From positions 1-64,000 of the IMG/VR virus record IMGVR_UViG_3300008448_000044: a stretch of DNA of 64,000 nt; one strand, 5' to 3'. This document shows, piece by piece, positions 28,772-42,367 of this stretch. The DNA comes from a virus (lineage: Duplodnaviria > Caudoviricetes). The notes under the pieces are model-generated. The model saw only the letters and a program-made list of their open reading frames with translations, ran no database searches and was not told the origin of the DNA. Position 1 is the first letter of the stretch, and each line of letters opens with the position of its first letter. A program made the translations under genes and the position numbers.

Positions 28772-29860
28772 ATGAAATTAATAATAGTATCGACATTTTG
28801 GAACGCGGAAAAATACGTAAATAAATGTATTGAATCTTTGAAAAATCAGTATTATACAAACTTTACTGCGTATTTTGTTGATGATATGTCTACCGATAAT
28901 TCATATAATGTTGCAAAAAACGCGGTAGGTGATGACGATAGATTTGTTTTAATTAAAAATTCTGAAAAAAAATATAAGACAAAAAATTTCATAGACATTA
29001 TTAGAGAAAATCCCAAGATTGATTGGGATGATGTTATTATTGAAATAGATGGTGATGATAAATTAAAGGATAATCATGTATTAAGTCGAATAAATAAAGT
29101 TTTTTCTGATTATAACATTTGGTTATGTGGGACAAAATGGATTGATACAAATGGTAGACTTGGAAATTATGGAAAACCCACACCTGAAAAAGCAAGGGTA
29201 ACTTCATGGAATTTCTCACACATGAGGTCTTACAGAGCTTTTTTGTTTAGAGCAATAAAAGATGAACATTTAAAATTTGAAGGTGGTTATTTTAAAGCCG
29301 CTTGTGACTTAGGATTTGGTATCCCTATGTTAGAAATGGCGGGAAGTGAACATTTTCATTATATTGAAGAACCTCTTTATGTATACACATGGCACGACAG
29401 ACAATCTTATTCGGATAAAAATTCATTTGGTGATAAAACAGTTCAAGGAAGAACCGCAAAACACATTTATTCGTTACCAAAATATCAAAAATTAAATTTA
29501 GAATTCGAATTTAAAATAAATGAAGAACCTGAAGTAATTCCTGAAATTAAACCTAGTAATATTGAGGTTTTAAATAAACTTTTACATAAAAAAGACAGTA
29601 ATAAATTCAAAACTACTCCTGCTAAAGGAGTTGATTATGACAGATTAAATAAAATTTTGTACGCCCAAGGGGTGTATAATCCTAAAAACAATACACCTTC
29701 ACCAAGAGTCAATCAGAATAAACCCGAAGATAGAAACAAATTAATTGAAATTAAAAGAGACTCTAATCTCGACGCTCTGAGAAAAAACTTACCAGGAAAA
29801 CCTAATCGAAAAAAAGATATTCCAAACATCTTTAGTAAAAAAAATCAAAGAAGAGGATAA
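28772..29860 (+). CDS. glycosyltransferase family 2 with basic C-terminal extension
   Basis: WNAEKYVNKCIES, VDDMSTD, IDGDD. Confidence 0.85.
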   Translation: MKLIIVSTFWNAEKYVNKCIESLKNQYYTNFTAYFVDDMSTDNSYNVAKNAVGDDDRFVLIKNSEKKYKTKNFIDIIRENPKIDWDDVIIEIDGDDKLKDNHVLSRINKVFSDYNIWLCGTKWIDTNGRLGNYGKPTPEKARVTSWNFSHMRSYRAFLFRAIKDEHLKFEGGYFKAACDLGFGIPMLEMAGSEHFHYIEEPLYVYTWHDRQSYSDKNSFGDKTVQGRTAKHIYSLPKYQKLNLEFEFKINEEPEVIPEIKPSNIEVLNKLLHKKDSNKFKTTPAKGVDYDRLNKILYAQGVYNPKNNTPSPRVNQNKPEDRNKLIEIKRDSNLDALRKNLPGKPNRKKDIPNIFSKKNQRRG

Positions 29861-29912
29861 AAGTCTTTTGATTTATAAGACAAAAGTTTCTATATTTGTA
29901 AAAACGAATACT

Positions 29913-30092
29913 ATGTACGTGATTTTAAAATACATTCTTAATGAAAAATCAGGGAAAAAATTACCCGTTATATTACTCAATGGTAGTAGTGAAATTTGGG
30001 AATTTGAAACTCTTGAATCTGCCGAAAATATGAGGGATATTTTCCAAAAAAATTCTGACTCGGGATACAAGTACGAGGTCAAAAAAATATAA
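29913..30092 (+). CDS. hypothetical protein
   Basis: ORF downstream of TATATTTG promoter element. Confidence 0.5.
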   Translation: MYVILKYILNEKSGKKLPVILLNGSSEIWEFETLESAENMRDIFQKNSDSGYKYEVKKI

Positions 30093-30099
30093 TTAACTT

Positions 30100-30173
30100 G
30101 GTTCCGTAGCTCAGCTGGATAGAGCAACTGCCTTCTAAGCAGTAGGTCACAGGTTCGAATCCTGTCGGGACTA
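30100..30173 (+). tRNA. tRNA-Arg(TCT)
   Basis: Cloverleaf; anticodon arm ACTGC-CTTCTAA-GCAGT; GGTTCGAATCC T-loop. Confidence 0.95.
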
Positions 30174-30189
30174 CTTTTTAAAAAATATT

Positions 30190-30441
30190 ATGGGAAGTCA
30201 AGATAATATGTTAGAACAAGAACACAATGAATTTGTTAACAGTGACCTTTTTTGTCAAATGATAAAGGATAAAATTGAACATTCCCATTATCATAAGTAC
30301 GATGGTATTGCACCTGAAGGTTTTTTGTTAATACCTGAAATTACTCTTGAACGTCTTAAAGATTTTGATTTTTGGAAGGAATGGAAAAATAATCCTTCAG
30401 TTCTTATTGACTTTGCAAAAAAAGATTCTTATTTAATATAA
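30190..30441 (+). CDS. hypothetical protein
   Basis: 83-aa ORF. Confidence 0.5.
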   Translation: MGSQDNMLEQEHNEFVNSDLFCQMIKDKIEHSHYHKYDGIAPEGFLLIPEITLERLKDFDFWKEWKNNPSVLIDFAKKDSYLI

Positions 30442-30498
30442 CTTTTTTTTGTGAGATACAGATTTTTTTATATCTTTGTAATCTAAATCAATAACATT

Positions 30499-31164
30499 AT
30501 GAAAAAGTTAATCAACGTCGCAATTGTTCTCGGTCTTATAGTATACGCAGGCGAATACCTGAAAAAAAACAATACTGACCTTTACGAAGTTTTTGATGTA
30601 GAAAAGCCTGTGGCTATCTATCTACCTGAAACTCCTGTAACTGTTGAGGAAGATACTCATTCTCATGACACTTCTGAATCTCATGTTGAAGAAGATTACT
30701 CTACTAACCCTAGTGTAGGTCAAACAATCTACATCAGAGCTTTGGGTGATGTTGACAATAACGACCTACAGTCGGCTGCTGACATCGTAAGAGATTTCTA
30801 CGGATACAATGTAAAATTCTTACCTAAAGTTGAGGTTAATTCTTATATGTTAACTTCTAATGGTGACTTAAATTCTGTTAACACTTGTGCTTCTTTGTCT
30901 GATGATGATAAAACAATCTATATCACTGACAGAAAACTATATACTCCTACTGGTGATTTACTTCGAGGTGTTGCGTCAGGTAACGATAGAACCGTTATTG
31001 TTAGAGGTGAATCAAGTTTCTTGAGAGAAACTGTTATCCACGAACTTGGTCACACACTTGGTTTGGGTCACTGTGACGACCTGTCTTGTATCATGGCAAT
31101 CAACAATGACGCATATGATAGTGGTGATTTCTGTAATAGTTGTAAACGTAAAATTGGTTTTTAA
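30499..31164 (+). CDS. archaemetzincin-like (M54) zinc metalloprotease with N-terminal anchor
   Basis: HELGHTLGLGHC...CIM...FCNSC. Confidence 0.85.
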   Translation: MKKLINVAIVLGLIVYAGEYLKKNNTDLYEVFDVEKPVAIYLPETPVTVEEDTHSHDTSESHVEEDYSTNPSVGQTIYIRALGDVDNNDLQSAADIVRDFYGYNVKFLPKVEVNSYMLTSNGDLNSVNTCASLSDDDKTIYITDRKLYTPTGDLLRGVASGNDRTVIVRGESSFLRETVIHELGHTLGLGHCDDLSCIMAINNDAYDSGDFCNSCKRKIGF

Positions 31165-31167
31165 TAT

Positions 31168-31446
31168 ATGAAAACATTTAAAGAATTAAAATTTAAAACT
31201 CACCCTATGGGTCTTGGGGTACAGGCAGTTGAGACATTTGATAACCAATATGGGGTTTCTGTGGTCAGAACCCCATATTCATACGGGGGTCAAAAAGGAA
31301 GATACGAATTGGCGGTACTTGATTCTTCAGGAGCAATTACCTATGATACACCAATCACTAATGATGTGTTGGGTTACCTTACCGAAGATGAGGTTTCTCA
31401 CTATATGATTGAAGTTCAAAAATTATTAACTTATACATTATTTTAA
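31168..31446 (+). CDS. conserved phage hypothetical protein
   Basis: FDNQYGVSVV..SYGG..YELAV..DVLGYLT. Confidence 0.7.
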   Translation: MKTFKELKFKTHPMGLGVQAVETFDNQYGVSVVRTPYSYGGQKGRYELAVLDSSGAITYDTPITNDVLGYLTEDEVSHYMIEVQKLLTYTLF

Positions 31447-31450
31447 AACT

Positions 31451-31708
31451 ATGCCAGAATTTGAAAGTTATGTTGACGTGGATGTTGATGAATTCTTATC
31501 CGCATGTTCACCAAGAGAAATTGAAAATTTGATTGAATACCTTATTGAGGACGGACATCTTGATTCAAAAGGACTACCAAAGAAAAATGAACCAAAGAGT
31601 TTAATGGAAGAAGAGTGGGTCGAAATTACCGATAATCTAAGGGAAAAACGACTTAACATCTCTAACGAAGACGAAGAAACAATTAGAAAAATTTCAAAAA
31701 AATATTAA
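31451..31708 (+). CDS. hypothetical protein
   Basis: 85-aa ORF in operon. Confidence 0.6.
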   Translation: MPEFESYVDVDVDEFLSACSPREIENLIEYLIEDGHLDSKGLPKKNEPKSLMEEEWVEITDNLREKRLNISNEDEETIRKISKKY

Positions 31709-31712
31709 TAAC

Positions 31713-31919
31713 ATGAATAGTATATTTAAAGACCTAATGGAAGAAAATTTAATTTCTGAACCTGAAATTGTGGATTTGATTCAGGTTACACACAAGTTAA
31801 CAAAACTCAATATAATGAGTCAAGAAGATTTGGATAATCTTTGTTTAAAACTAGGAGTAACGCAAATAGGTGAAAATGTATTCCAAATAGATGAAAATAG
31901 TGAGTATACGTTTAACTAA
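31713..31919 (+). CDS. hypothetical protein
   Basis: 68-aa ORF in operon. Confidence 0.5.
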   Translation: MNSIFKDLMEENLISEPEIVDLIQVTHKLTKLNIMSQEDLDNLCLKLGVTQIGENVFQIDENSEYTFN

Positions 31920-31927
31920 CTCCTAAC

Positions 31928-32002
31928 GGTCCTATAGCTCAGTTGGTTAGTAGCACCTGACTCATAATCAGGGGGTCACAGGTTCGAGCCCTGTTGGGAC
32001 CA
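31928..32002 (+). tRNA. tRNA with CAT anticodon, probably Ile2 (lysidine type)
   Basis: CCTGA-CTCATAA-TCAGG arm; body resembles bacterial tRNA-Ile2. Confidence 0.85.
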
Positions 32003-32023
32003 CAAAAAAAATTAGTAAAAAGC

Positions 32024-32053
32024 TTGTCAATCAAGAAACTTTTACTAAGTTTG
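32024..32053 (+). promoter_or_regulatory. Bacteroidota sigmaA-type promoter of tRNA array 1
   Basis: TTG...TAAGTTTG (-33/-7 consensus TTTG / TAnnTTTG). Confidence 0.65.
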
Positions 32054-32088
32054 TAATAGTTATTAGAAAACAAATTAAAATAGAAACA

Positions 32089-32193
32089 ATGAGAACAATT
32101 AATAAACATATGGTCATTATTAGCAAGTCGCAGTTTAGAAATTGCTGGTATCCGCGTGTTCAGATTAATGGTTCGGATTTGTGTATAGGTTAA
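32089..32193 (+). CDS. putative attenuator leader peptide 1 (MRTINKHMVIISKSQFRNCWYPRVQINGSDLCIG)
   Basis: 34-codon ORF between promoter and terminator; codons match tRNAs of downstream array; contains strand complementary to the terminator. Confidence 0.8.
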   Translation: MRTINKHMVIISKSQFRNCWYPRVQINGSDLCIG

Positions 32194-32218
32194 AATTGAG
32201 TTAAACGTAACAAGATAT

Positions 32219-32256
32219 AACCCCGAACCAACACAAGGTTCGGGGTTTTTTGTTTT
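32219..32256 (+). terminator. attenuator terminator 1
   Basis: AACCCCGAACC-aacacaa-GGTTCGGGGTT plus U-tract; 5' arm can alternatively pair with TGGTTCGG at 32169-32176. Confidence 0.9.
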
Positions 32257-32258
32257 AA

Positions 32259-32282
32259 GTTCTTTGACATATTGGTTTGAAA
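32259..32282 (+). promoter_or_regulatory. boxA-like antitermination element
   Basis: GTTCTTTGACATATTGGTTTGAAA, identical at 36699-36722; resembles rrn boxA. Confidence 0.7.
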
Positions 32283-32290
32283 GTTTAAAT

Positions 32291-32374
32291 TGTCCTGTAG
32301 TGTAATTGGCAACACACCTGATTTTGGCTCAGGAATCCGCAAGGTGTATCCAGGTTCGAGTCCTGGCGGGACAA
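32291..32374 (+). tRNA. tRNA-Gln(TTG) with long variable arm
   Basis: CCTGA-TTTTGGC-TCAGG arm; variable region AATCCGCAAGGTGTAT. Confidence 0.85.
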
Positions 32375-32376
32375 CA

Positions 32377-32452
32377 GATGGCGTGGCTTAGAGGAAAAGA
32401 GTTTTCTCTCATAAGGAAGACCAAGTGGGTTCGAAACCCATACACGTCACCG
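32377..32452 (+). tRNA. degenerate tRNA-Met(CAT)-like
   Basis: CTCATAA loop, GTGGG-TTCGAAA-CCCAT T-arm; irregular acceptor junction. Confidence 0.55.
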
Positions 32453-32458
32453 AATAAT

Positions 32459-32530
32459 AGCCCTTTAGCTTAAAGGAGAAGCACTTGTTTTACATACAAG
32501 ATAGTGTAGGTTCGAGTCCTACAGGGGCTA
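32459..32530 (+). tRNA. tRNA-Val(TAC)
   Basis: CTTGT-TTTACAT-ACAAG arm. Confidence 0.9.
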
Positions 32531-32539
32531 CAATAAATT

Positions 32540-32612
32540 GGAGAGGTTGCCAAGTTGGTCAAGGCACTGGACTGAAAATCCAGCTATGTGGGTTCGATTC
32601 CCACCCTCTCCA
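32540..32612 (+). tRNA. tRNA-Phe(GAA)
   Basis: CTGGA-CTGAAAA-TCCAG arm. Confidence 0.9.
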
Positions 32613-32689
32613 CGGAGTCCTGAATTAACAGGAGACCCCCACTCCCATATGGCAGTCAGTCCGTTAACCTGATGAAGTGGGGTTTTTAT

Positions 32690-32767
32690 GGAGTATATAG
32701 TGTCAGTGGTTGAGCACGTTAGTTTGTGGTACTAATAGGGTGAGTTCGAATCTCACTATACTCCCCA
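32690..32767 (+). tRNA. tRNA-His(GTG)
   Basis: TTAGT-TTGTGGT-ACTAA arm; G-1:C73; encoded CCA. Confidence 0.92.
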
Positions 32768-32830
32768 CCCCCCGAGTTTTGGAGCTGGTACCTCCTTTTA
32801 CCCGAATTGAAATGAAAAACTACCAAATTT

Positions 32831-32917
32831 GGAAGTGGTCTGAATGGACGAAGAGCTTGTCTTGAAAACAAGTAGTACCTTAACTGTGTATTGGGGGTTC
32901 GATTCCCTCCGCTTCCG
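32831..32917 (+). tRNA. tRNA-Ser(TGA)
   Basis: CTTGT-CTTGAAA-ACAAG arm; long variable arm; G73. Confidence 0.9.
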
Positions 32918-32923
32918 CAACTT

Positions 32924-32996
32924 AGTCTCTTGGTGTAACGGATAAGCACCTATCGCTACGGACGATAAAGTTTGGGTTCGAATCCCAAGGAGACTA
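32924..32996 (+). tRNA. tRNA-Arg(ACG)
   Basis: TATCG-CTACGGA-CGATA arm. Confidence 0.9.
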
Positions 32997-33037
32997 CAAC
33001 ATCCGATGTGTGTTCCCGAGCTAGGTCGGGATAAAAT

Positions 33038-33125
33038 GGAAGATTACTCAAATTGGTAAAGAGGCTTGTTTGCTAAACAAGTAGGTCTGAAATATGATAC
33101 GTAGGTTCGAACCCTACATCTTCCG
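33038..33125 (+). tRNA. tRNA-Ser(GCT)
   Basis: CTTGT-TTGCTAA-ACAAG arm; long variable arm. Confidence 0.9.
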
Positions 33126-33132
33126 CAACAAT

Positions 33133-33205
33133 GGTTCTGTAGTTCAATTGGAAGAACAAGGCTCTTCTAAGGCTTCGGTTGGGGGTTCGAATCCCTCCAG
33201 AATCA
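33133..33205 (+). tRNA. tRNA-Arg(TCT), second copy
   Basis: AGGCT-CTTCTAA-GGCTT arm. Confidence 0.85.
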
Positions 33206-33218
33206 CTAAAATAAATAA

Positions 33219-33290
33219 CGGGGTGTAGTCTCGGGGAGAGACGCGTGTTTTGGGAACACGAGGCGGCTGGTTCGACTCCAGTCACCCCGA
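33219..33290 (+). tRNA. tRNA-Pro(TGG)
   Basis: CGTGT-TTTGGGA-ACACG arm; C1:G72, A73. Confidence 0.9.
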
Positions 33291-33305
33291 CTAATAATTA
33301 AAATT

Positions 33306-33515
33306 ATGTTTGGATTTAGAAAAACATTAACTAACGAGGAATGTGAAATAGTCATGTTAAAAGGAAAGTTAGAAGGACTGACCAATTATCATGAGGGTTT
33401 AACTAAAGTTAGTGAAAGACCTGATAATAGAAGTGATTTATCAGAAGAAATTAAAAGAGTTAAAAATGAAATCATTATGATTGAAGGAACTCTAAAAAAA
33501 ATGAAAAAAAATTAG
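33306..33515 (+). CDS. small coiled-coil hypothetical protein within tRNA array
   Basis: 69-aa ORF filling inter-tRNA gap. Confidence 0.55.
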   Translation: MFGFRKTLTNEECEIVMLKGKLEGLTNYHEGLTKVSERPDNRSDLSEEIKRVKNEIIMIEGTLKKMKKN

Positions 33516-33572
33516 TAAAACAGAACGATATATACCAAAAAATGGTTACTTTTGTTCTATAAAACTAAATAT

Positions 33573-33645
33573 TGTGATGTGTCCGAGTGGTTTAGGAACT
33601 ATCCTGATACGATAGTCTACGTGGGTTCGAGTCCCACCGTCACAA
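33573..33645 (+). tRNA. tRNA-Ile(GAT)
   Basis: CTATC-CTGATAC-GATAG arm. Confidence 0.85.
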
Positions 33646-33647
33646 CG

Positions 33648-33791
33648 AAAACTGTAGTAAAATAAGAGTTACTTCGTCTGTTAAACGAGTGGTCGTAGGT
33701 TCGAATCCTACCTTTGAACACAGTCTTAAGTGACACGTTCAGAGTAGCTCAGGGGTAGAGTACTAAATCTCTCTTATGATTTTCTCAGTTT
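33648..33791 (+). ncRNA. circularly permuted tRNA-Asn(GTT)-like RNA / YrlA-like Y RNA
   Basis: Order is anticodon arm, T arm, acceptor 3' strand, linker, acceptor 5' strand, D arm, all enclosed by an outer stem (AAAACTG/CAGTTTT, ATAAGAG/CTCTTAT). Confidence 0.75.
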
Positions 33792-33796
33792 TAATT

Positions 33797-33872
33797 GTCT
33801 TCGTAGCTCAGCTGGTTTTAGAGCATTCCACTTTTAATGGAAGGGTCACAGATTCGAATTCTGTCGGGGACA
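33797..33872 (+). tRNA. tRNA-Lys(TTT)
   Basis: TTCCA-CTTTTAA-TGGAA arm. Confidence 0.9.
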
Positions 33873-33887
33873 CAAATTAACAACACA

Positions 33888-34289
33888 ATGCACAGTACTG
33901 CAAACAAAGAAAAATGTCTTAATGGTAAATCCTTAGAAGACGACTTTCAAAACCTAACAGGGTTAAAGAAAATGTTAAAAAAAGAAAAACCATTCTTTAT
34001 TAATTCTTTAGGTAAAAAACAAATTATTGATTTTGATTTTAAAACTGAAATTAATGGTGTTGATGTCTTTATTGACTTAACAACAACATTCAGAAGTGAC
34101 AGATTAAAACAAAAGGCATATAATGCGATTATGTATAAAACTAAACTTAACCCAAATTGTAAGTTTTATATGGGAGTTGGAAAATTAATTGAAAACGGGA
34201 AAAAGAAAAATCCGATTTTAATCGAAGGGATTGATGGTGTAATCTTGGTAGATGATTTAATCGGAATGATAAAACGGACAGATGCCTGA
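33888..34289 (+). CDS. putative PD-(D/E)xK nuclease inserted in tRNA array
   Basis: GKSLE...IIDFD...FIDLTTTFRSDRLKQ resembles restriction-endonuclease-type active-site motifs; stop lies inside tRNA-Cys. Confidence 0.55.
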   Translation: MHSTANKEKCLNGKSLEDDFQNLTGLKKMLKKEKPFFINSLGKKQIIDFDFKTEINGVDVFIDLTTTFRSDRLKQKAYNAIMYKTKLNPNCKFYMGVGKLIENGKKKNPILIEGIDGVILVDDLIGMIKRTDA

Positions 34290-34349
34290 GTGGTTTAAAG
34301 GGGTGGACTGCAAATCCATTATTCGGGGGTTCAAATCCCTCTCTGTCCT
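34276..34349 (+). tRNA. tRNA-Cys(GCA)
   Basis: GTGGA-CTGCAAA-TCCAT arm; U73. Confidence 0.92.
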
Positions 34350-34350
34350 C

Positions 34351-34506
34351 AATGAAGTAGTCAAAAGCGTAGGTAATCAAGCGTGGAGAGACGTGTCGCA
34401 AGGGTACACACTAAGGATAAGTAGAAATACTCAACTCTCTAATGGTGTGTGAAGTAGAAACATAAGAACCTACAGGATTCCTGATAAAGATTATCACTAT
34501 TTCATT
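34351..34506 (+). ncRNA. unassigned structured RNA
   Basis: Terminal helix AATGAAGTAG/CTATTTCATT, inner GTAGGT/ACCTAC; no ORF; sits between tRNAs. Confidence 0.5.
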
Positions 34507-34510
34507 AATT

Positions 34511-34583
34511 GCATCTTTGGTGTAACGGATTAGCATAAGTGACTCCAAATCTCTTGGTCAGGGTTCGAATCCCTGGGGATGCG
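34511..34583 (+). tRNA. tRNA-Trp(CCA)
   Basis: CTCCAAA loop; G73. Confidence 0.88.
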
Positions 34584-34589
34584 CAAAAT

Positions 34590-34662
34590 GACTCAGTAGC
34601 TCAATTGGTGGAGCCCCATACTGTTAATATGGTCGTTACAGGTTCAAGTCCTGTCTGAGTCG
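34590..34662 (+). tRNA. tRNA-Asn(GTT)
   Basis: CCATA-CTGTTAA-TATGG arm; G73. Confidence 0.9.
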
Positions 34663-34742
34663 CAAATATTTTTCATTGTTAATGTTGTGAGAATGGAAAA
34701 AAGTTGTATCTTTGTCAAACAAACAACTTAAAACTATACACC

Positions 34743-35189
34743 ATGACATCTACAATAATCAACGTAAACACAGGAACATTAGCAGGAGAGGTATTTTACG
34801 GAAACTTCAACACTACCGTAAAAGGTAAAAGAATTTCAGTTTCAGTTTCAAACCACCTTAAAGACGCAGATAAAGAATACGAATTCCGTATCGCAAATAA
34901 ATGTCAAGCAGGATTCATCAATATCCACGACACTAAAGGAACTGCGGCGGGTGTTATCCGTGGATACCAAAAAAACTCATTGGTTAATATCCAAGCAAAA
35001 AATGAGTATGGTCAATGGATGAACGTTTACACTGTCAAAGGAGGTAAATGGTATTCAATCGACAAAGGGTTTTTGGATGTGTTGACTGTTGGGACAATGA
35101 GAGAGTCTTTCCCTGACATGTGTGACATGGAACTTTGGGGTAGAATGGGAGCAAAAACTTGGGCGGACAAGGCGTTTGTACAGAATTAA
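34743..35189 (+). CDS. hypothetical protein
   Basis: 148 aa; own TATCTTTG promoter at ~34708. Confidence 0.7.
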   Translation: MTSTIINVNTGTLAGEVFYGNFNTTVKGKRISVSVSNHLKDADKEYEFRIANKCQAGFINIHDTKGTAAGVIRGYQKNSLVNIQAKNEYGQWMNVYTVKGGKWYSIDKGFLDVLTVGTMRESFPDMCDMELWGRMGAKTWADKAFVQN

Positions 35190-35210
35190 AAATTAATAAA
35201 ACAATAGAAT

Positions 35211-35510
35211 ATGTCTTTTAAGAGCGAATTATTGTACAAGTCATCCAATATTGGAAAATATGAACTACACCTTGATGGTTCAACAGGATGGGGAATTTTA
35301 TTTCCAAACGGGTATATTGAAGTTGAGGAAGGTCCGCATGATTGTGTTGGATTTATGAGAGGAGAAGTAAATGGGATTTCTGTATATTCAGAAGGTTACA
35401 ACGTCCCAAGAATTCCTGGGTCATATTGGATGGGTGATATGTCTGATGGGGAGTTGTTAAAATTTTTTGATGAGGTTGTTTTAAAATATAGTCAGGTGTC
35501 GAAATGGTAG
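35211..35510 (+). CDS. hypothetical protein
   Basis: 99 aa; stop inside the downstream tRNA-like element. Confidence 0.55.
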   Translation: MSFKSELLYKSSNIGKYELHLDGSTGWGILFPNGYIEVEEGPHDCVGFMRGEVNGISVYSEGYNVPRIPGSYWMGDMSDGELLKFFDEVVLKYSQVSKW

Positions 35511-35592
35511 ACGAGCCTCAACACCCTGGGGTTGAGACATTAAATGAGGGATAACAATGGGTCTCTTACAGGTTCGAGTCCTGTCCTGACTA
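35490..35592 (+). ncRNA. tRNA-like RNA (AGTCAGG/CCTGACT acceptor) with aberrant anticodon arm
   Basis: Intact acceptor, D-loop (AAATGGTAGAC) and T-arm; expanded anticodon region. Confidence 0.7.
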
Positions 35593-35595
35593 CAT

Positions 35596-35730
35596 AGGTT
35601 GATTGGGGAATGGTGATACCTATGACACGAGAGTGTGTATCGGTCGGCATCATCGGAGTTTGCAGGTACACACCGAAGTAATGCCAATCGTAAAAGAGGA
35701 TGTCCACTGAACCATCTTCCTCTTTCCTAA
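35596..35730 (+). ncRNA. unassigned structured RNA
   Basis: Outer helix GGGAATGGT/ACCATCTTCC; inner GATAC/GTATC and GGCAT/ATGCC helices. Confidence 0.5.
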
Positions 35731-35733
35731 ATT

Positions 35734-35814
35734 GGGAGTGTTAAGCAACGGTTGCTTAGCTGACTGTAAATCAGTGGTCTTACGACATTGGGGGTTCGAA
35801 TCCCTCCACTCCCA
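35734..35814 (+). tRNA. tRNA-Tyr(GTA)
   Basis: GCTGA-CTGTAAA-TCAGT arm; variable arm. Confidence 0.9.
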
Positions 35815-35829
35815 CAAAAATTTTTCAAA

Positions 35830-36444
35830 TCATTTGTCTTTCTTTTTGTAGATTTTTGGAGGTAAAGGTGGGTCTAAAAGAAATTTGTCATTTATCCAAT
35901 TTCTAAGTTCATTTTCGACAAAAAATTCAGGAACTTCGTCATCATCTGATTTTGATGATGCCAAATCTGAAATATAGTCGGCGAACTTAAGTTTGTATTT
36001 GTCATCCATCATTGTCATCAAACCATCAGTCATAAAAAAAACTCTGGATAATGGGTCTTCAATATTTAATTCACCTTCTGCTAAATTAAATGATTTCATA
36101 ATTACTTTACCCCACCAAGTTTTATAGTTTTGAGTTTCAACAATAGTTGGTCGGATTATTTTATTGAATGCTCTTAAAGACGACCCAATAAACCCCGCAA
36201 TTGCAATTTGTGGTAAAAACCAAGGTAATAATCTAATTAACGCTTTAAATCCTCCCTCACCAACACCTTTCCATAAACGCTCATTTTTTGCAGAATCAAC
36301 TAACGCCTTTAGTTGACCGAATGTTATTTTACCCTGAGCACTACAGAATTGTTTGGATTTACAAATATTGTTTACCGCGCTTTTAGAGGGTTCAATCTCC
36401 TCCATTAACATTAATATTTGTGATTCTGTTAATATCAACCTCAT
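35830..36444 (-). CDS. hypothetical protein (probable virion-internal)
   Basis: N-terminus MRLILTESQILMLMEE; separates the two tRNA arrays. Confidence 0.7.
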   Translation of the reverse strand: MRLILTESQILMLMEEIEPSKSAVNNICKSKQFCSAQGKITFGQLKALVDSAKNERLWKGVGEGGFKALIRLLPWFLPQIAIAGFIGSSLRAFNKIIRPTIVETQNYKTWWGKVIMKSFNLAEGELNIEDPLSRVFFMTDGLMTMMDDKYKLKFADYISDLASSKSDDDEVPEFFVENELRNWINDKFLLDPPLPPKIYKKKDK

Positions 36445-36527
36445 ATTAATAAATATGATATTTTACCTAAAACTTGACACTTTTAAAAAGTTGTATATAT
36501 TTAATTAAAAAACAAACAACGCAAAAA

Positions 36528-36599
36528 ATGAAAAATTTAAATATCATACTTTTAGGCGGGACTGAAGCGGATACACGTTTTAGAACGGAGATGGTATGA
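36528..36599 (+). CDS. putative attenuator leader peptide 2 (MKNLNIILLGGTEADTRFRTEMV)
   Basis: 23-codon ORF upstream of terminator; codons match tRNAs of array 2; GGAGATGG complementary to the terminator 5' arm. Confidence 0.78.
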   Translation: MKNLNIILLGGTEADTRFRTEMV

Positions 36600-36622
36600 T
36601 ATGACGTGAAATAAACTGACTG

Positions 36623-36658
36623 AAACCCATCTCCAAAAAAGATGGGTTTTTTCTTTTT
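36623..36658 (+). terminator. attenuator terminator 2
   Basis: AAACCCATCT-ccaaaaa-AGATGGGTTT plus U-tract. Confidence 0.9.
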
Positions 36659-36698
36659 ATACGTTTTGTGAATTGAAATTTTTTTGTAACTTTGTAAT

Positions 36699-36722
36699 GT
36701 TCTTTGACATATTGGTTTGAAA
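36699..36722 (+). promoter_or_regulatory. boxA-like element (preceded by TAACTTTG promoter at 36687-36694)
   Basis: Exact 24-nt repeat of 32259-32282. Confidence 0.7.
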
Positions 36723-36727
36723 AGTAA

Positions 36728-36799
36728 GGTCTATTGGTGTAGTGGCTAACATACATCCCTGTCACGGATGTGCCGCGAGTTCGATTCTCGCATAGACCG
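36728..36799 (+). tRNA. tRNA-Asp(GTC)
   Basis: CATCC-CTGTCAC-GGATG arm; G73. Confidence 0.92.
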
Positions 36800-36805
36800 C
36801 AATAT

Positions 36806-36882
36806 CGCGGGTTATGGAAGTGGTCTATCCGCCAGGTCTCATAAGCCAGGAATCGGGGGTTCGAATCCCTCACCCGCTACCA
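36806..36882 (+). tRNA. tRNA-Met(CAT), initiator-like
   Basis: C1:U72 mismatch, CTCATAA loop, encoded CCA. Confidence 0.8.
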
Positions 36883-36885
36883 AAT

Positions 36886-36964
36886 GGGGGTACATGTACC
36901 AAGGCTTTGGCGATGTCGATTTGCAATCAACGTGAGGTGGGTTCGATTCCCACTATCTCCACCA
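36886..36964 (+). tRNA. tRNA-Ala(TGC)
   Basis: TTTGCAA loop; G3:U70; encoded CCA; atypical D arm. Confidence 0.85.
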
Positions 36965-37199
36965 AATAAACGAGTAAAACAAAGAATGATGAGAGAAGTT
37001 TTGTCAGGAACTCTCAAATCAGGTAAAAGAAATTTTGTAAAGGTAAATCAAGATAATAATCTGATTGAGAGTTTGAAAAAAACGCTTAAAAGAACGAAGT
37101 ACAAGTTCAGAGTGAGGAGCGGGTCTCACAAAAGTAATTAAATAAAGAGGAACAACTTGTGTAGAAGCCTCAGGGAACTGCAGTCCCACTACACTCTAA

Positions 37200-37272
37200 G
37201 CGGGTGTCGTATAACGGCATATTATATTAGACTTCCACTCTAAGGATGAGGGTTCGACTCCCTCCACCCGCT
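37200..37272 (+). tRNA. tRNA-Gly(TCC)
   Basis: TTAGA-CTTCCAC-TCTAA arm; U73. Confidence 0.92.
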
Positions 37273-37293
37273 CTAATTTAAATTTAAAAGAAA

Positions 37294-37563
37294 ATGAAAA
37301 AAGTGTTTTTTATCTTGGGAATTGTTTCCCTATTTGGAATGTCGTCTTGTACTGAGAATTCGCGAGTAAAGAATTGGGGAGGGGAAGGTACATTAACCTT
37401 ACCTAAAGGTCAAAAATTGGTAAATGTAACTTGGAAAGAAAGTCAGATTTGGTATCTTACAAGGTCTATGAAAGAAACTGACTCTGCCGAAGTTTATATA
37501 TTTCATGAAGAGTCTTCTTACGGTATGATGGAAGGAACTTACAAAATCGTGGAGGTGAAATAA
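37294..37563 (+). CDS. small lipoprotein
   Basis: Signal peptide with lipobox-like MSSC. Confidence 0.75.
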   Translation: MKKVFFILGIVSLFGMSSCTENSRVKNWGGEGTLTLPKGQKLVNVTWKESQIWYLTRSMKETDSAEVYIFHEESSYGMMEGTYKIVEVK

Positions 37564-37778
37564 GAATCCTTATGAGATTAGGTTTTAAAACAAAAAGATT
37601 TTTGATTAAAAACAGAGAAAATATCGTATACCTATACATGGGAATAATTTTTTTAATTTTTTTACTTACGGTTTTTTTGTAGTTTAAAAAAAAGTTGTAT
37701 CTTTGTAATGTTGTTAAGGGGGACGGAAGTATTAAAGTGATGGTGTTCCGTCCCCCGAATAAGAGAAAAAGTTCTTTG

Positions 37779-38070
37779 AAAGGTTGTGATTTATTACACT
37801 AAAGCGAGGGGGAAAACTTTAGGTAGTATGTGTTGAACTAGATTGCTCCGACTAGCGTGGGTATACTCACGAAGCATTTAACAATGGAGTAATGATGCTT
37901 ACACATATAAATCCCAACCATTTTTAAAATATTGATAGTGGTCACTCTTACAATGAAAGTCGACAGAGTAGTTGTAAGGTAACATAGTGTCAGCACCCTC
38001 GGCCAGTGCACTGATAAAACTCAGAAGATGCCGTTAAGATTGGAGCGAGATGGGTACTCCAACACTATCA
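37779..38070 (+). ncRNA. two unassigned structured RNAs
   Basis: Helices GGTTG.GATTT/AAATC.CAACC (37782-37919) and TGATAGTG/CACTATCA (37933-38070); follow promoter, hairpin and boxA. Confidence 0.5.
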
Positions 38071-38138
38071 TCTTACTGAATGAACAACGCGACCGCAGGA
38101 GTTGTACCTTTATGGTTTTGTAATGTGGTTTTTTAAAT

Positions 38139-38212
38139 GTCGCGTTAGACGAGCGGTTTAAGTCGTCACCCTTTCAAGGTGAAAATCACGGGTTCGAATC
38201 CCGTACGCGATA
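38139..38212 (+). tRNA. tRNA-Glu(TTC)
   Basis: TCACC-CTTTCAA-GGTGA arm. Confidence 0.92.
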
Positions 38213-38269
38213 CAAACTTCAATAGGAGTACCTGTTCAAGGGATGTTGTAATTCCCCTATTGATTAAAA

Positions 38270-38356
38270 ACCACTGTTGAAAGTTACTATTGGATAGGAC
38301 GAACAGGAGGGTGACCGATACGTAAGGTCTTTGGGGTTCAAATCCCACCAGTGGTC
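38270..38356 (+). ncRNA. degenerate tRNA-like element
   Basis: ACCACTG/CAGTGGT acceptor-like helix and GGG-TTCAAAT-CCC T-arm; no clear anticodon arm. Confidence 0.45.
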
Positions 38357-38724
38357 AATGAGTAAGAGATACTCACCGAGTTTTTAAGTTCTCTCAAGAC
38401 TTAACGAATTTGGTACTACCACGTTACGGGGTACTCGTTGGGAATAAGGCTGGAAAATCCTCCTCGCCCCCAAGTAAGGATTGACGTTTAAGTGGTAAGA
38501 CACGTTGGGTTTTGAAATAGGAAAACTGTGAATATCCACTCACCTGTAATCTCAAGGTGGGGTTTTGTGAGAGTAATCGGTCGAGCCACATTTAGCCGTT
38601 AATCACACAAATGGTTTGGGAACAGAGGTGGCCGTGACTTTTCCAAATCTAGCCAACCAAGCTATACTACGATACGGGCTCATACCTGTGGGTTAGGGGT
38701 GACGTTCAGGAGAGACTGAAACGG

Positions 38725-38802
38725 AGTCAGGAGCGTAATGAGGTATGGCACCGAGTCCTGTGAAAAGGTTGCTCATTGTGGGTTCGAATCCCTCCCTGAC
38801 TA
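38725..38802 (+). ncRNA. tRNA-like RNA, AGTCAGG family
   Basis: AGTCAGG/CCTGACT-A acceptor, GGTTCGAATCC T-arm, non-canonical middle. Confidence 0.6.
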
Positions 38803-39017
38803 CGAGTCGCTTTTTCGTGGTCTGTTGTTAGACGGTGGTTTTAGGCGTGATGTAAAACCGATAACTTTAAGTAGTTTGTATAATATAACAACTCCGTTTA
38901 ATAGTTTCGGGTATAGAAAAAGTAGGTCTTTTTTACATGGAAAGAGTTTTTGACGTTCAAAAAAACTAATAAAATTAGTAGGGAATAAAAGGGAGTTACT
39001 CGCTCCCTTCCCGAAAT

Positions 39018-39120
39018 AGTCAGGTGGCGGAATTGGTAGACGCTTAAAGAAAGCCGAAAGGTGGGTGTAAGTCCCTTAATGGTGTAAACTTCGTACAGGT
39101 TCGATTCCTGTCCTCGGTTA
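39018..39120 (+). ncRNA. tRNA-like RNA, AGTCAGG family
   Basis: Leu-like D arm GGCGGAATTGGTAGACGC, T-arm, no canonical anticodon loop. Confidence 0.6.
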
Positions 39121-39266
39121 CAAAAAATTAAAAGTTATGAATTATACAATAGAAAAGAAATGCCATGCTTGGATAGGAATATGGTGGCAAGTTAAAGAAG
39201 ATAAAGATATAGTCTTTAAGAGTAAACGAAAAAAAGATTGTGTGCTCTACGTGAACAATAAAATAT

Positions 39267-39365
39267 AGTTAGGTGGCGGAGAGGAAACGCTAACTATGAA
39301 TAGTCTGAGGAGTGGAACATAGTCCTATACTCCAATGACCGCAGGTTCGAATCCTGTCCTGACTA
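39267..39365 (+). ncRNA. tRNA-like RNA, AGTCAGG family
   Basis: AGTTAGG/CCTGACT-A acceptor, T-arm GCAGG-TTCGAAT-CCTGT, aberrant middle. Confidence 0.6.
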
Positions 39366-39379
39366 CAAAAAGTAAAAAT

Positions 39380-39571
39380 ATGGAATTGATATTGTATGGG
39401 ATTATCGGAAGTTTGATTGGTAGTTTAATTGTGTTAATTACAATAAATCTATTTAAGTCAAAACCATCAATTGACTATCAGGAGTTGATTAAACAATCTG
39501 AAGAACGATTAGAGAAGTCAAAAAAATATGGTGAAGAGTTAGATAGAATGTTGGAGGAAATGAAAAAATAA
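39380..39571 (+). CDS. small membrane-anchored protein
   Basis: N-terminal TM helix plus coiled coil. Confidence 0.55.
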   Translation: MELILYGIIGSLIGSLIVLITINLFKSKPSIDYQELIKQSEERLEKSKKYGEELDRMLEEMKK

Positions 39572-39733
39572 ATAAAATGGAAAATAAAGAATGGAATCCA
39601 AATGATTGGCAAGGTAAACGCAAAGACCAAGTTGACTACGCAAGCGCGATAACTTTTATTTCAATTGTTTTTGGAATTGTAGTTGGAATTGTGGTTTGTT
39701 TTTTATATCTTTGTAATGTTATTTGATTGAAAC

Positions 39734-39820
39734 GCTTGGGTGGTGGAATGGTAGACACGAGGGACTTAAAATCCCTTGGCCAATGCGGCCGTGAGGGTTC
39801 GAGTCCCTCCCCGAGTACCA
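39734..39820 (+). tRNA. tRNA-Leu(TAA)
   Basis: AGGGA-CTTAAAA-TCCCT arm; variable arm; CCA. Confidence 0.95.
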
Positions 39821-39824
39821 AAAT

Positions 39825-39897
39825 TGGTACGTAGCTCAATGGTGAGAGCACGACGCTTATATCGTCACGGTTATGGGTTCGAATCCCATCGTACCAA
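39825..39897 (+). tRNA. tRNA-Ile(TAT)
   Basis: GACG-CTTATAT-CGTC arm; A73. Confidence 0.85.
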
Positions 39898-39903
39898 CAA
39901 CTT

Positions 39904-39984
39904 GCCCGAGTGGTGGAATGGTAGACACGTAAGTCTTAGGAACTTATGTCGAATGACGTGTCGGTTCGAGTCCGACCTTGGGTA
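39904..39984 (+). tRNA. tRNA-Leu(TAG)
   Basis: TAAGT-CTTAGGA-ACTTA arm; variable arm. Confidence 0.93.
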
Positions 39985-39989
39985 CGAAA

Positions 39990-40545
39990 CCGTGGTAATG
40001 TTAGTAGGATGAGGCTGCAATCGGATTCCTTTAAACAACGCGTGAGGGGCAGCTTTCACGATGTGGCTGATAACCCACGGCGACTAAAGACCCCACGATT
40101 AACAGAGATATCCGACTGTTATGGTGTGTGAACCTGACTTGAAGGCTTCAAGGCTATGGGGGAGGCTACACAGGTTAGGTAAGGATTCCTCATTATGGAT
40201 TGAGAGGGTAAGGGGCTTTAATTAGTCGTGTTGTAATCCACAAGTTGTAGAAATACTGAACAATTCTACAATATACACTCTGGCTTCCGAGTGAGACCCG
40301 CCAAGTAACTATGGGGGTAGGGTGAAGATGTTCTGAGGGCAGCACTGAACGCTATACACGAAAGACTATGACTCACTTGATTAGGTTAGTAGGTATGGAC
40401 GGAGTGTGAAAGTAGAAACCCACCGTGGATGGTTACTATGGGCTAACGAATCTTAGTCATATCGGTGAGGGATATAACGTACATCAAATATAAGAAAAAC
40501 AAAAAGGTTCACCTGGACTGATGCAGGGACGATTCAGAACCTTTT
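39990..40545 (+). ncRNA. ~550-nt GC-rich structured non-coding region between tRNAs
   Basis: No credible ORF; helices CCGTGG/CCACGG, CGACTAA/TTAGTCG, TTGTAGAA/TTCTACAA, AAAAGGTTC/GAACCTTTT. Confidence 0.55.
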
Positions 40546-40551
40546 ATTTAT

Positions 40552-40629
40552 GGTGTCGGTAGCTCAGTAGGTAGAGCAAAGGATTGAAACTCCTTGTGCC
40601 GAGCGGTTCGATTCCCTCCCACACCACCA
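40552..40629 (+). tRNA. tRNA-Phe(GAA), second copy
   Basis: AAGGA-TTGAAAC-TCCTT arm; CCA; imperfect acceptor/T stems. Confidence 0.8.
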
Positions 40630-40632
40630 AAT

Positions 40633-40705
40633 GCCCCTGTAGCTCAATTGGTAGAGCTCTTGATTTGTAATCAAGTGGTTGCAGGTTCGATTCCTGTCGG
40701 AGGCT
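40633..40705 (+). tRNA. tRNA-Thr(TGT)
   Basis: CTTGA-TTTGTAA-TCAAG arm. Confidence 0.9.
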
Positions 40706-40728
40706 CTAACAAACCAATATGTTTGATT

Positions 40729-40754
40729 CCCCATCTTTATAGGTGGGGTTTTTT
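40729..40754 (+). terminator. terminator ending tRNA array 2
   Basis: CCCCATCT-ttat-AGGTGGGG plus U-tract. Confidence 0.8.
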
Positions 40755-41229: not shown

Positions 41230-41313
41230 ATTAATAAATAGTTTACAAAAACATTAACCCTATTTTAATTAATGGGGTTTTTTTATATAAAAAAAGTTTT
41301 GTATATTTGCTTT

Positions 41314-41658
41314 ATGGAAGATAAATCAAAAGAGAAAATTTACGTTGACACTATTATATATCAACGACATAAGGGTTTCCCATTTCAATGGTTGGATATT
41401 AAACATATTGAATTTGAAGATGAGGATGTTATTCGTTTAGATTATATTGAGCCGTACTATTCTGATAATGATTCCTACGATGGTCATTTTTCAGGTATGG
41501 TTATTAGAAAAGTTGAAGAAACTGATGAACAGTATAATAATAGACAAGAAAGAATCGCTCAAGATGAAAAATGGGCGAAAGAACGTAGATACCAGAGTTA
41601 TCTAAAATTAAAGAAAGAATTTGAAAATGAAATCGATAAATCAAATATTCAGGGGTAA
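41314..41658 (+). CDS. hypothetical protein
   Basis: ORF after TATATTTG promoter. Confidence 0.6.
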   Translation: MEDKSKEKIYVDTIIYQRHKGFPFQWLDIKHIEFEDEDVIRLDYIEPYYSDNDSYDGHFSGMVIRKVEETDEQYNNRQERIAQDEKWAKERRYQSYLKLKKEFENEIDKSNIQG

Positions 41659-42365: not shown

Positions 42366-42367
42366 TT

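Follow-up and report, generated by a model that had tools for sequence, protein, structure and literature searches.

Large phages of Bacteroidota seem to place arrays of transfer RNA (tRNA) genes behind short leader peptides whose codons list the tRNAs encoded downstream. We studied a stretch of 64,000 nucleotides (nt; hereafter the window) of a phage of the class Caudoviricetes, the first 64 kb of the 77-kb IMG/VR record IMGVR_UViG_3300008448_000044, which is judged ~26% complete and therefore indicates a phage of ~300 kb. In the middle of the window, a promoter-like element, a leader open reading frame (ORF), an intrinsic terminator and a boxA-like motif precede a first tRNA array, and a second unit with the same parts follows it. 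We consider it quite likely that each unit is a ribosome-mediated attenuator of the trp/his/leu type, sensing the supply of the tRNAs encoded downstream and followed by antitermination of the kind found in ribosomal RNA (rrn) operons. On the best reading of these sequences, the regulatory codons would form a list, with one to three codons per downstream tRNA species, and would control a tRNA array and not a biosynthetic operon. It is also reasonably probable that such units form a class of their own in large Bacteroidota phages, a hitherto undescribed tRNA-supply attenuator that combines a mirrored codon list, a switch and a hijacked rrn boxA into a module expressing the array on demand. A first-pass annotation, made from the letters of the window alone, had proposed the first unit as an OR-gate attenuator, and had suggested computing the odds of the codon match, seeking orthologous leaders, co-variation between leader codons and arrays and compensatory changes in the antiterminator, and folding both conformers. 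The orthologous leaders, the compensatory changes in the helices and the codon/array co-variation described below all support that proposal, whose mechanism we infer.

A leader peptide that lists the tRNAs of its own array

The first unit starts with a promoter-like element (32024..32053; all features of both units are on the plus strand) made of TTG (32024-32026), 19 nt and TAAGTTTG (32046-32053). The Bacteroidetes -33/-7 consensus is TTTG/TANNTTTG in the accessible part of PMC6847099, and both TTG and TAAGTTTG match it in sequence. Boxes of this -33/-7 type are kept upstream of leader 1 in its relatives and would represent a promoter of the Bacteroidota primary sigma factor. Leader ORF 1, as read from the sequence and the ORF list (32089..32193, with TAA at 32191-32193), has 34 sense codons and encodes MRTINKHMVIISKSQFRNCWYPRVQINGSDLCIG; neither this peptide nor that of leader 2 has a Pfam or PHROGs family at E-values up to 1. 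Intrinsic terminator 1 (32219..32256) comprises region 3 (32219-32229), a loop (32230-32236), region 4 (32237-32247) and TTTTTTGTTTT. The boxA-like motif 1, the 17-mer GTTCTTTGACATATTGG recognised by sequence match (32259..32275), is separated from the terminator by a gap of 13 nt, too short for a promoter. All four parts lie where the first-pass annotation had placed them, and its reading of leader codons 4-27 is exact. A tRNA-Met(CAT) gene (31928-32003) adjoins the leader 1 promoter on its upstream side, outside the attenuated unit, as it does in the related loci L003 and L007.

Array 1 (32291..35815) contains 15 tRNA genes called by ARAGORN and a Met-like gene. Its members are Gln, Met-like, Val, Phe, His, Ser-TGA, Arg-ACG, Ser-GCT, Arg-TCT, Pro, Ile-GAT, Lys, Cys, Trp, Asn and Tyr. 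The 16 tRNA genes announced earlier are therefore confirmed for 15, which ARAGORN finds with the anticodons named; the sixteenth, the degenerate Met-like gene (32380-32449), remains below the Rfam tRNA threshold (22.6 bits against 29), as the caveat attached to it had anticipated. A second caveat also stands, in that the Val codons GTC/GTT need extended wobble by the UAC anticodon. Inside the array, an extra tRNA-like element at 33648-33795 is just above the Rfam tRNA threshold (31.3 bits for 33648-33716) without being called by ARAGORN, and a weak YrlA (Y-RNA-like) match overlaps it (33.7 bits, threshold 69). Between an ORF ending at 35510 and tRNA-Tyr, the stretch ~35494-35592 has a tRNA-like acceptor stem and T-arm (CAGGTTCGAGTCCTG) and an odd middle; neither ARAGORN nor Rfam calls it, and it could be an unusual or interrupted tRNA adding a class to array 1.

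Codons were sorted into 24 decoding classes, one per amino acid except that the codon boxes of Ser, Arg, Leu and Ile count as separate classes. In leader 1, codons 2-23 cover 16/16 classes of array 1, in accordance with the claim that each array tRNA has its codon in the leader. When codons are drawn from the usage of the 48 long ORFs of the window, 16 of 16 classes in 22 codons are obtained once per 2,000,000 draws, and among the 12,290 real 22-codon windows of these ORFs none reaches even 15 classes. Stop-free windows with 16 classes amount to 6 of 39,702 in six frames, and may be leader 1's own overlapping windows. The tail of leader 1 has Gly, Asp, Leu and Ile-ATA codons, all of array 2 classes. 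A stalled ribosome covers ~13 nt 3' of the A-site codon; we set the sensing zone at codons 2-23 (32092..32157), a boundary estimated from this footprint, because a ribosome stalled there would leave free the strand of the RNA switch called region 2 below. The zone has at least one codon per array 1 class, plus one Thr.

The choice among synonymous codons is also peculiar. In codon boxes for which the array has only a tRNA with U34, the leaders use NNG codons 40 times out of 111, against 410 of 4346 in the long ORFs of the window, a background that comes from one phage only and to which RNA-structure constraints may contribute. These codons, such as CCG, TCG, ACG and GTG, are rare in the phage genes. 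Standard wobble rules allow U34 (or C34) tRNAs, but not G34 tRNAs, to read NNG codons. The NNG preference is what a sensor for U34 tRNAs would require.

The second unit of the window repeats the pattern with other amino acids. Leader ORF 2 (36528..36599; MKNLNIILLGGTEADTRFRTEMV) has codons for all ten classes of array 2, and these 10/10 classes lie within 22 codons (chance P = 0.0024). Array 2 (36728..40706) has Asp, Met, a homologue of Ala-TGC, Gly, Glu, Leu-TAA, Ile-TAT, Leu-TAG, Phe and Thr; the Ala homologue (36885-36964) has no ARAGORN call and matches the tRNA-Ala(TGC) of the related locus L004 at almost every base. Since leader 2 covers all ten classes, the two leaders divide the amino acids between them as the arrays divide the tRNAs. 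The putative promoter of leader 2 (36474..36503; TTGACA ... TATATTTA) is kept in relatives, and its -7-like box TATATTTA is off consensus at the last base. Terminator 2 (36623..36658) consists of AAACCCATCT / AGATGGGTTT and a T-run; it is followed by a -7-like box TAACTTTG (36687..36694), with similar boxes in L003, L004, L009 and L149, and by boxA-like motif 2 (36699..36715), the same 17-mer as motif 1. ARAGORN also calls two transfer-messenger RNAs (tmRNAs), at 36587-36964 and 54132-54522. The former is almost certainly false: it overlaps tRNA-Asp, tRNA-Met and the Ala-like gene, and the Rfam tmRNA score on 36909-36964 is 25.7 bits for a threshold of 47.

Mutually exclusive RNA structures are conserved by compensatory changes

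The leader RNA can adopt alternative structures that involve four regions. Region 1 (GAACAATTAAT, 32093..32103) pairs with 32163-32173 in the minimum-energy fold of the full-length leader. Region 2 (32169..32184), the antiterminator strand, lies within codons 27-32 of the ORF and consists of TGGTTCGG (32169-32176) and TTGTGT (32179-32184). As the first-pass annotation had noted, TGGTTCGG is exactly complementary to CCGAACCA (32223-32230), and the proposed TTGTGT/ATATAA extension of this helix is seen in the fold made before the 3' arm of the terminator exists. Terminator 1 alone folds at -19.7 kcal/mol. The fold of the full leader 1 combines the 1:2 hairpin with the terminator (z = -4.4), whereas before region 4 is made the 2:3 antiterminator is the minimum-energy fold, regardless of whether the 5' part of the leader is included (-18.9 kcal/mol for 32150-32236). 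Both conformers are thus found by folding. In unit 2, GGAGATGG (36587-36594), near the end of the ORF, is complementary to CCATCTCC (36627-36634) in the 5' arm of the terminator, and masking the 5' part of the leader switches its fold from 1:2 to 2:3.

The helices were compared across an alignment of 23 leader 1 versions. In the 2:3 antiterminator, 164/164 cells are paired and three pairs have changed on both sides, in two lineages: L009/L153, where GGTTCGG became AGTTCAG with terminator arms altered to match, and L132. The 3:4 terminator is paired in 93% of cells, with 3 compensated pairs. The 1:2 helix is the weakest of the three, with 82% of cells paired and modest covariation. Leader 2 adds a replacement of a whole helix, GGAGATGG/CCATCTCC being exchanged for GGTGGGT/ACCCACC in L149/L154. 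The compensatory antiterminator changes that one would seek in relatives are therefore present in both units, as three pairs in leader 1 and one helix in leader 2.

No T-box was found by Rfam in the region 29500-41500 at E-values up to 1. A match to the trpB motif (RF04312) at 32157-32257 falls below its threshold (31.5 bits against 59, E = 0.38) and was rejected.

Leaders and arrays match across diverged families

Homologues of leader 1 were identified by exact-pattern scans in 56 other loci, corresponding to 10 of the 12 hits in viral contigs and 46 of the 47 hits in metagenomes; the pattern matches in L008 and L010 (viral) and in L159 (metagenome) are due to chance. These provide the orthologous leaders that the first-pass annotation had proposed to look for. 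With that of the window, the family has 22 distinct peptides and 37 distinct DNA versions, and the conservation of the segment QFxNCWYP is partly built in, as it was fixed in the search pattern. The arrays of these relatives, where there is enough sequence and with individual genes uncalled in some loci, contain Gln, Met, Val, Phe, His, two Ser, Arg, Pro, Ile, Lys, Cys, Trp, Asn and Tyr, with or without Arg-TCT. The halves of array 1 are swapped in L009, L011 and L012, and the tRNA set is still the same. Within the family some codons have moved. In L082, NCWYPR became NCSYPR and a Trp codon is present eight codons earlier; the AGY Ser codon is at codon 12 in some versions and at codon 17 in others; and ATT AAT became AAT ATT in L004, with the pairing between regions 1 and 2 kept. 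In codons 2-14 of the 16 closest versions, variable positions are six third, one first and three second, of 13 each. This bias is based on small numbers, and is unusable in codons 15-22, where the pattern allowed synonymous change only.

To cultured phages the connection is thin. A blastn of 31700-33300 against the INPHARED phage records gave tRNA matches only, and a tblastn of the 34-residue leader 1 gave nothing, so that no cultured phage with the leader was found in that database. The sequence itself is present at freshwater sites.

We then used the inner 16-mer of the boxA-like motif, TTCTTTGACATATTGG, to collect units; loci found by this 16-mer alone are unbiased as to leader sequence. 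They comprise 42 units with boxA and tRNA. In 35 of these, the 420 nt upstream contain a hairpin followed by a T-run, and each of the 35 has an ORF starting with ATG and ending 15-45 nt before the stem of the terminator. Over all loci, a leader ORF is present in 98 of 109 units with boxA and tRNA, and ends 21-35 nt before the stem. These leaders fall into many diverged families, from each of which we took as representative the member with the largest array, with at least 6 classes. Among the 22 representatives sharing less than 70% identity, most of them detected by boxA only, 244 of the 266 array classes have a codon in their own leader, against 197.3±7.9 when leaders and arrays are permuted; among the 14 with less than 50% identity the values are 161 of 181 and 142.2±4.2. 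In neither set does any of 100,000 permutations reach the observed value. When the leader DNA is read in its other two frames, coverage is 173 and 169 of the 266 classes.

A stricter comparison is possible for 12 representatives, those with an array that is complete within the locus. There, the leader has a codon for 142 of 154 classes present in the array and for 61 of 134 classes that the array lacks, which corresponds to a Mantel-Haenszel odds ratio by class of 14.2, with 0/100,000 permutations reaching the observed agreement. Array 1 of L005 was wrongly scored as running into array 2, as its leader 2 starts with GTG; this mis-assignment, which counts against the hypothesis, was kept. Individual families illustrate the trend. 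L084, L090, L098 and L128 have Thr and Leu tRNAs in the array and Thr and Leu codons in the leader core, and in L091 the leader MKTQFTYNCNQMPEQGNKGDYMDTDLG precedes an array of Cys, Asn, Glu, Lys, Tyr, Gln, Asp and Gly. The suggested co-variation of leader codons with array content is thus seen in the complete arrays, in leader 2, which lists array 2, and in the units of the phage described next.

An independent case is LR756501.1, the record of an uncultured phage of 735,411 bp, to which we were led by a blastn of 32200-32300 against INPHARED that gave two weak hits (E = 0.02). The arrays in its tRNA region are sorted by amino acid, and three are preceded by a leader ORF with a terminator. 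In all three, the 3' end of the ORF repeats the 3' arm of the terminator. The leader MNNILHINLLNSLCLLGIKLIG has 7 Leu codons out of 21, uses all six Leu codons, and precedes five Leu tRNAs (Leu-TAG, Leu-GAG, Leu-CAA, Leu-TAA and Leu-TAG). The leader MNFRIINMIQEQMQQIQNLIGGTISY, rich in Gln, Met, Ile-ATA and Glu, precedes Met, Gln-TTG, Gln-CTG, Gln-TTG, three Met, Ile-TAT and Glu. The leader MLQTSKHSKHFSSSSKWFTTFGVETDLLCVS, rich in Ser, Lys, His, Phe and Trp, precedes Trp, an Arg-TCT-like gene with an insert, two His, Phe, Lys, Ser and Lys. Given the class frequencies of the window phage, the binomial P values of these three leaders are 0.001, 0.0005 and 0.0005, respectively. In L297, a locus of this record, Rfam detects at 6161-6278 a tRNA of 118 nt (52.6 bits), apparently Arg-TCT-like, with an insertion of ~45 nt, that ARAGORN missed. 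Elsewhere in LR756501.1, an ORF similar to cold-shock proteins, with its own terminator, precedes another boxA.

A putative copy of the host rRNA antitermination signal precedes the arrays

The boxA-like motif lies 23-30 nt upstream of the first tRNA (16 and 13 nt in the two units of the window). A 23-nt sequence that includes most of it, TTCTTTGACATATTGGTTTGAAA, occurs in the window at 32260 and 36700 only, each time directly before the first tRNA of an array, and never in 100 shuffles. The exact 17-mer is present in at least 120 loci, mostly in Bacteroidota genomes, e.g. of Pedobacter, Mucilaginibacter and Chitinophaga. Six of these loci were scanned with Rfam: in five the 17-mer is between spacer tRNAs and the 23S rRNA, and in the sixth, L192, a tRNA is upstream and there is no 23S call. 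A tRNA-Ala or tRNA-Ile is found at most 400 nt upstream in 75 of 122 sites of the 17-mer, and a tRNA less than 100 nt downstream in one only. A variant with three or four mismatches lies ~150 nt before the 16S. The position in the spacer is presumably that of boxA in the rrn operons of Escherichia coli. From these sequences, the 17-mer appears to be the boxA of the Bacteroidota rrn 16S-23S spacer, with which it is identical. The accessible text of PMC3177189 describes BoxA as recognised by NusB/NusE. In phage contigs, the inner 16-mer is at most 80 nt upstream of a tRNA at 38 of 117 sites. Given the identity with the rrn spacer and this position before tRNAs, it follows that phages would place a copy of the host signal for rRNA antitermination before their arrays.

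We considered the 17-mer as a promoter, of the sigma-70 or of the Bacteroidota type, and rejected both. Only 13-20 nt separate TTGACA from the start of the tRNA, a distance too short for a -35 box; moreover, the units have no conserved -10/-7 partner and the motif is an element of the host rrn spacer. A promoter for a phage polymerase is less likely too, given the identity with host rrn and the lack of a conserved partner box. Many units (L020, L051, L069, L084, L090, L098 and others) have one tRNA, often Thr-TGT, between the terminator and boxA. The gap between the two is then ~90-105 nt, against 9-20 nt otherwise.

A proposed many-input switch for tRNA supply

From the observed anatomy, its conservation, the covariation of the alternative helices, the matching of codons with tRNAs and the identity of boxA with rrn, we infer translation of the ORF, read-through that depends on stalling and binding of Nus factors. 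Host RNA polymerase would start at the -33/-7 promoter and transcribe the leader, which a ribosome would translate. If all listed codons are decoded promptly, the ribosome would reach or pass region 2, the 3:4 terminator would form and transcription would stop at 32256. If the ribosome stalls in codons 2-23, region 2 would remain available and pair with region 3 ahead of the synthesis of region 4, and the polymerase would read through. It would then transcribe the rrn boxA copy and presumably load factors of the NusB/NusE type, which would presumably carry it through the 3.5-kb, largely untranslated array. The unit would work as an OR gate with many inputs, with shortage of any tRNA supplied by the array switching it on and sufficient supply switching it off. 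Because the tRNAs produced would relieve the slow decoding that acts as signal, this would constitute a negative-feedback loop with many inputs. In the fold made without region 4, the antiterminator persists although region 1 is available for pairing; as leader 1 is predicted to antiterminate without translation, the off state would depend on active translation. Interspersed with the tRNAs of array 1, and in the same orientation, are four small or medium ORFs of 69 to ~160 amino acids (33306-33515, 33837-34289, 34704-35189 and 35211-35510) that would be co-transcribed with them.

What could make the ribosome stall? Host defences that cleave tRNAs are a plausible trigger on circumstantial grounds. 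Downstream of array 2, a cluster resembling RNA-repair genes (41943-48071) encodes a cyclic-phosphate-processing receiver domain (cREC_REC, 41943-42365), a calcineurin-like phosphoesterase (43580-44248), an RNA ligase of PF09414 with a PHA02142 OB domain (45987-46997) and an RNA ligase of the T4 Rnl1 type (PF09511, 46998-48071), along with cupin and MGS-like domains. In T4, Rnl1 and polynucleotide kinase repair the tRNA cut by the anticodon nuclease PrrC. Decay of host tRNAs during infection, or a mismatch in codon usage, would be equally good triggers. Further downstream are a PKD-like domain (52969-53535) and a CHU_C sorting domain of type IX secretion (53538-54101). The corresponding ORFs carry Bacteroidota-specific features, in agreement with the host suggested by the promoter and boxA, and the rrn-type boxA together with the CHU_C domain therefore indicates a Bacteroidota host.

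Observations that weigh against the attenuator

Several observations weigh against an attenuator tuned to its own array. The match between leaders and arrays is imperfect: 22 of the 266 array classes have no codon in the corresponding leader, 46% of the classes absent from an array are still in its leader, and permuted pairings of leaders and arrays already cover 74-78%. The representative families are homologous, so that the permutation counts make independent events seem more numerous than they are; ARAGORN, in turn, misses unusual tRNAs, which affects the comparison in both directions. Single cases go the same way. Leader 1 has one non-array codon among codons 2-23, a Thr at codon 3, which is an array 2 class. 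L005 has AGT in its leader, yet no Ser-GCT was found in its array by ARAGORN, and its leader 2 has TCG where others have GCG, i.e. no Ala codon, despite a tRNA-Ala in the array. L011 has AGA at codon 2 and no Arg-TCT in that array. In unit 1 of LR756501.1, the array includes Ser-CGA and the leader has no TCG, and the Arg-TCT-like gene has no codon in the leader. A fourth array of LR756501.1 has boxA and no leader ORF: on the minus strand at ~187,950-188,300 (L313), the end of an L7/L12-like ORF is followed within a few bases by the boxA-like motif and an array of Ile, Cys, Asp, Asn and Tyr. Leaders are therefore common, not universal.

Other points concern the workings of the switch. At borderline significance, the sensing zone is richer than the tail in codons served by the array (84 of 115 against 30 of 53, P = 0.05, from the 6 usable representatives of 22). 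One codon per tRNA should give a much weaker sensitivity than the codon runs of classical attenuators, and the fold of leader 1 predicts antitermination when the leader is untranslated. The TAACTTTG box might act as an additional promoter from which array 2 is transcribed free of attenuation, so that attenuator 2 would be bypassed. The RNA data are contigs from four metatranscriptome runs on 31700-33300, blind to transcript ends and levels. One contig of 186 nt, from run X16, bridges the leader, the terminator, boxA and the first bases of tRNA-Gln (32112-32296). It might represent the read-through form in that library, or possibly DNA carry-over, and is silent on regulation. The other contigs are mainly parts of tRNAs, with 90-99% likeness. 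A single contig of run X15 has its first base at 32275, within the boxA motif, immediately behind letters of a sequencing adapter.

Alternative explanations

Some of these points would be accounted for if the attenuator were real and answered any slowdown of translation, be it ribosome shortage, host shut-off, starvation or toxins, with the leader as a mere sample of codons. Such a general sensor of translation status would fit the great diversity of the leaders, which have 13-21 of the 24 classes in 20-38 codons, the presence in the leader of nearly half of the classes that the array lacks, the weak specificity of a single codon per tRNA, and the prediction that leader 1 reads through whenever it is untranslated. 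It would leave aside that the two leaders of one genome are complementary in composition and that each fits its own array, a match that 0 of 100,000 permutations attain across families. The leaders of LR756501.1, dominated by few amino acids of their own arrays and in one case aimed at Leu only, are also hard to see as samples, and we regard a general sensor as improbable. A different possibility is that promoter, ORF and terminator are an independent micro-gene for a functional peptide of 34 residues, the array being transcribed from elsewhere and the codon match being a by-product. The array could hardly be transcribed from a promoter squeezed into the 13 nt between terminator 1 and boxA 1, even if a promoter-like box is present after terminator 2. 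An independent gene would also have no need for an ORF whose 3' end copies the 3' arm of the terminator and co-varies with it in several families. The peptide is conserved, and codons 2-14 of the 16 closest versions vary mostly at third positions, in favour of a functional product; between families, however, peptides diverge freely and their composition tracks the arrays, the Trp has moved in L082, and Pfam and PHROGs offer no match. We hold the micro-gene to be very improbable.

Trp and Pro are typical of arrest peptides, and both are present in the segment NCWYPR of leader 1. One could thus think of a switch of the TnaC/SecM kind, in which a small molecule or factor would cause NCWYPR, as nascent peptide, to arrest the ribosome, the identity of the codons being irrelevant. 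KSQFxNCWYPR is invariant in the leader 1 family, largely because the search pattern required it. The L082 leader breaks the motif (NCSYPR) while keeping a Trp codon elsewhere, other leader families of the same architecture do without it, and peptide arrest leaves leader 2 and the leaders of LR756501.1 unexplained, so this switch is hardly to be credited. An attenuator that reads a list of codons for the tRNAs of its array remains our preferred interpretation.

Significance and comparison with known systems

The purpose of the tRNA genes of phages is a matter of decades-long debate and, to our knowledge, almost nothing is known of the regulation of such genes. If our interpretation is true, phage tRNA sets are inducible replacement parts and not constitutive supplements to codon usage, and the phage monitors decoding capacity tRNA by tRNA to answer with the matching set. 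Attenuation would then extend from the supply of amino acids to that of tRNAs, from one or few inputs to sixteen, and to Bacteroidota, whose initiation and promoters differ from those of model organisms. Compact (~250 nt) and modular, the units could be used as natural biosensors for single tRNA pools. With a leader fused to a reporter, it should be possible to see which tRNAs fall short in the course of infection or when a defence that targets tRNAs is active.

Phage tRNA sets are known to substitute for host tRNAs that are lost through the action of anticodon nucleases, retron effectors or PARIS, according to the accessible parts of PMC10264068, PMC11555353 and PMC11464382. The window phage resembles these phages in its near-complete tRNA set and in its RNA ligases and cyclic-phosphate-processing genes. 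The difference lies in the question, since these papers, in the parts available, treat the function of the tRNAs and not their transcriptional control. The available portions of PMC10264068, PMC11025619 and PMC7162821 make no mention of attenuation, leader or terminator, and in the first two promoter is not mentioned either. In the full-text literature within reach, which leaves out subscription journals and supplementary files, we found no leader-peptide attenuator before tRNA genes.

T-box riboswitches are alike in that a leader RNA toggles between terminator and antiterminator according to the status of tRNA. They differ in that they bind one uncharged tRNA through a specifier codon and the T-box sequence, with no ribosome involved, and control genes for synthetases or amino acids; in the phage unit sensing would go through translation and have many inputs. 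The likeness to rrn antitermination lies in the 17-mer, which is identical to the spacer boxA and resembles the rrn BoxA 12-mers given in the accessible text of PMC3177189. The use of a host boxA by a phage has a precedent in lambda (PMC2800207, in its accessible part). Unlike the nut sites of lambda and the boxA of rrn, the phage motif precedes tRNA arrays and stands downstream of an attenuator, with no boxB or N in view.

The closest relatives in mechanism are the attenuators of amino-acid operons (trpL, hisL, leuL, pheL, thrL and ilvL), which share with the phage units the leader ORF, the regulatory codons, the mutually exclusive 2:3 and 3:4 helices, with a predicted 1:2 helix, and the terminator. 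In them too, stalling at the regulatory codons favours the antiterminator, and thrL and ilvL answer to several amino acids. The likeness goes furthest with the leader of the leu operon, which has its counterpart in the Leu-rich leader before the Leu-tRNA array of LR756501.1. Yet amino-acid attenuators control enzymes, whereas the phage unit would control tRNAs, the sensed molecules themselves. They have runs of codons for one or few amino acids, against 16 inputs with 1-3 codons each in leader 1, and no boxA follows their terminator as it does in the phage unit. The latter, finally, is phage-borne, in a host phylum whose initiation is not led by Shine-Dalgarno sequences, as stated in the available part of PMC6847099. 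Leader-peptide attenuation itself is thus known, and what appears to be new is the control of tRNA genes, the leader that reads as a list with many inputs, and the boxA borrowed from rrn.

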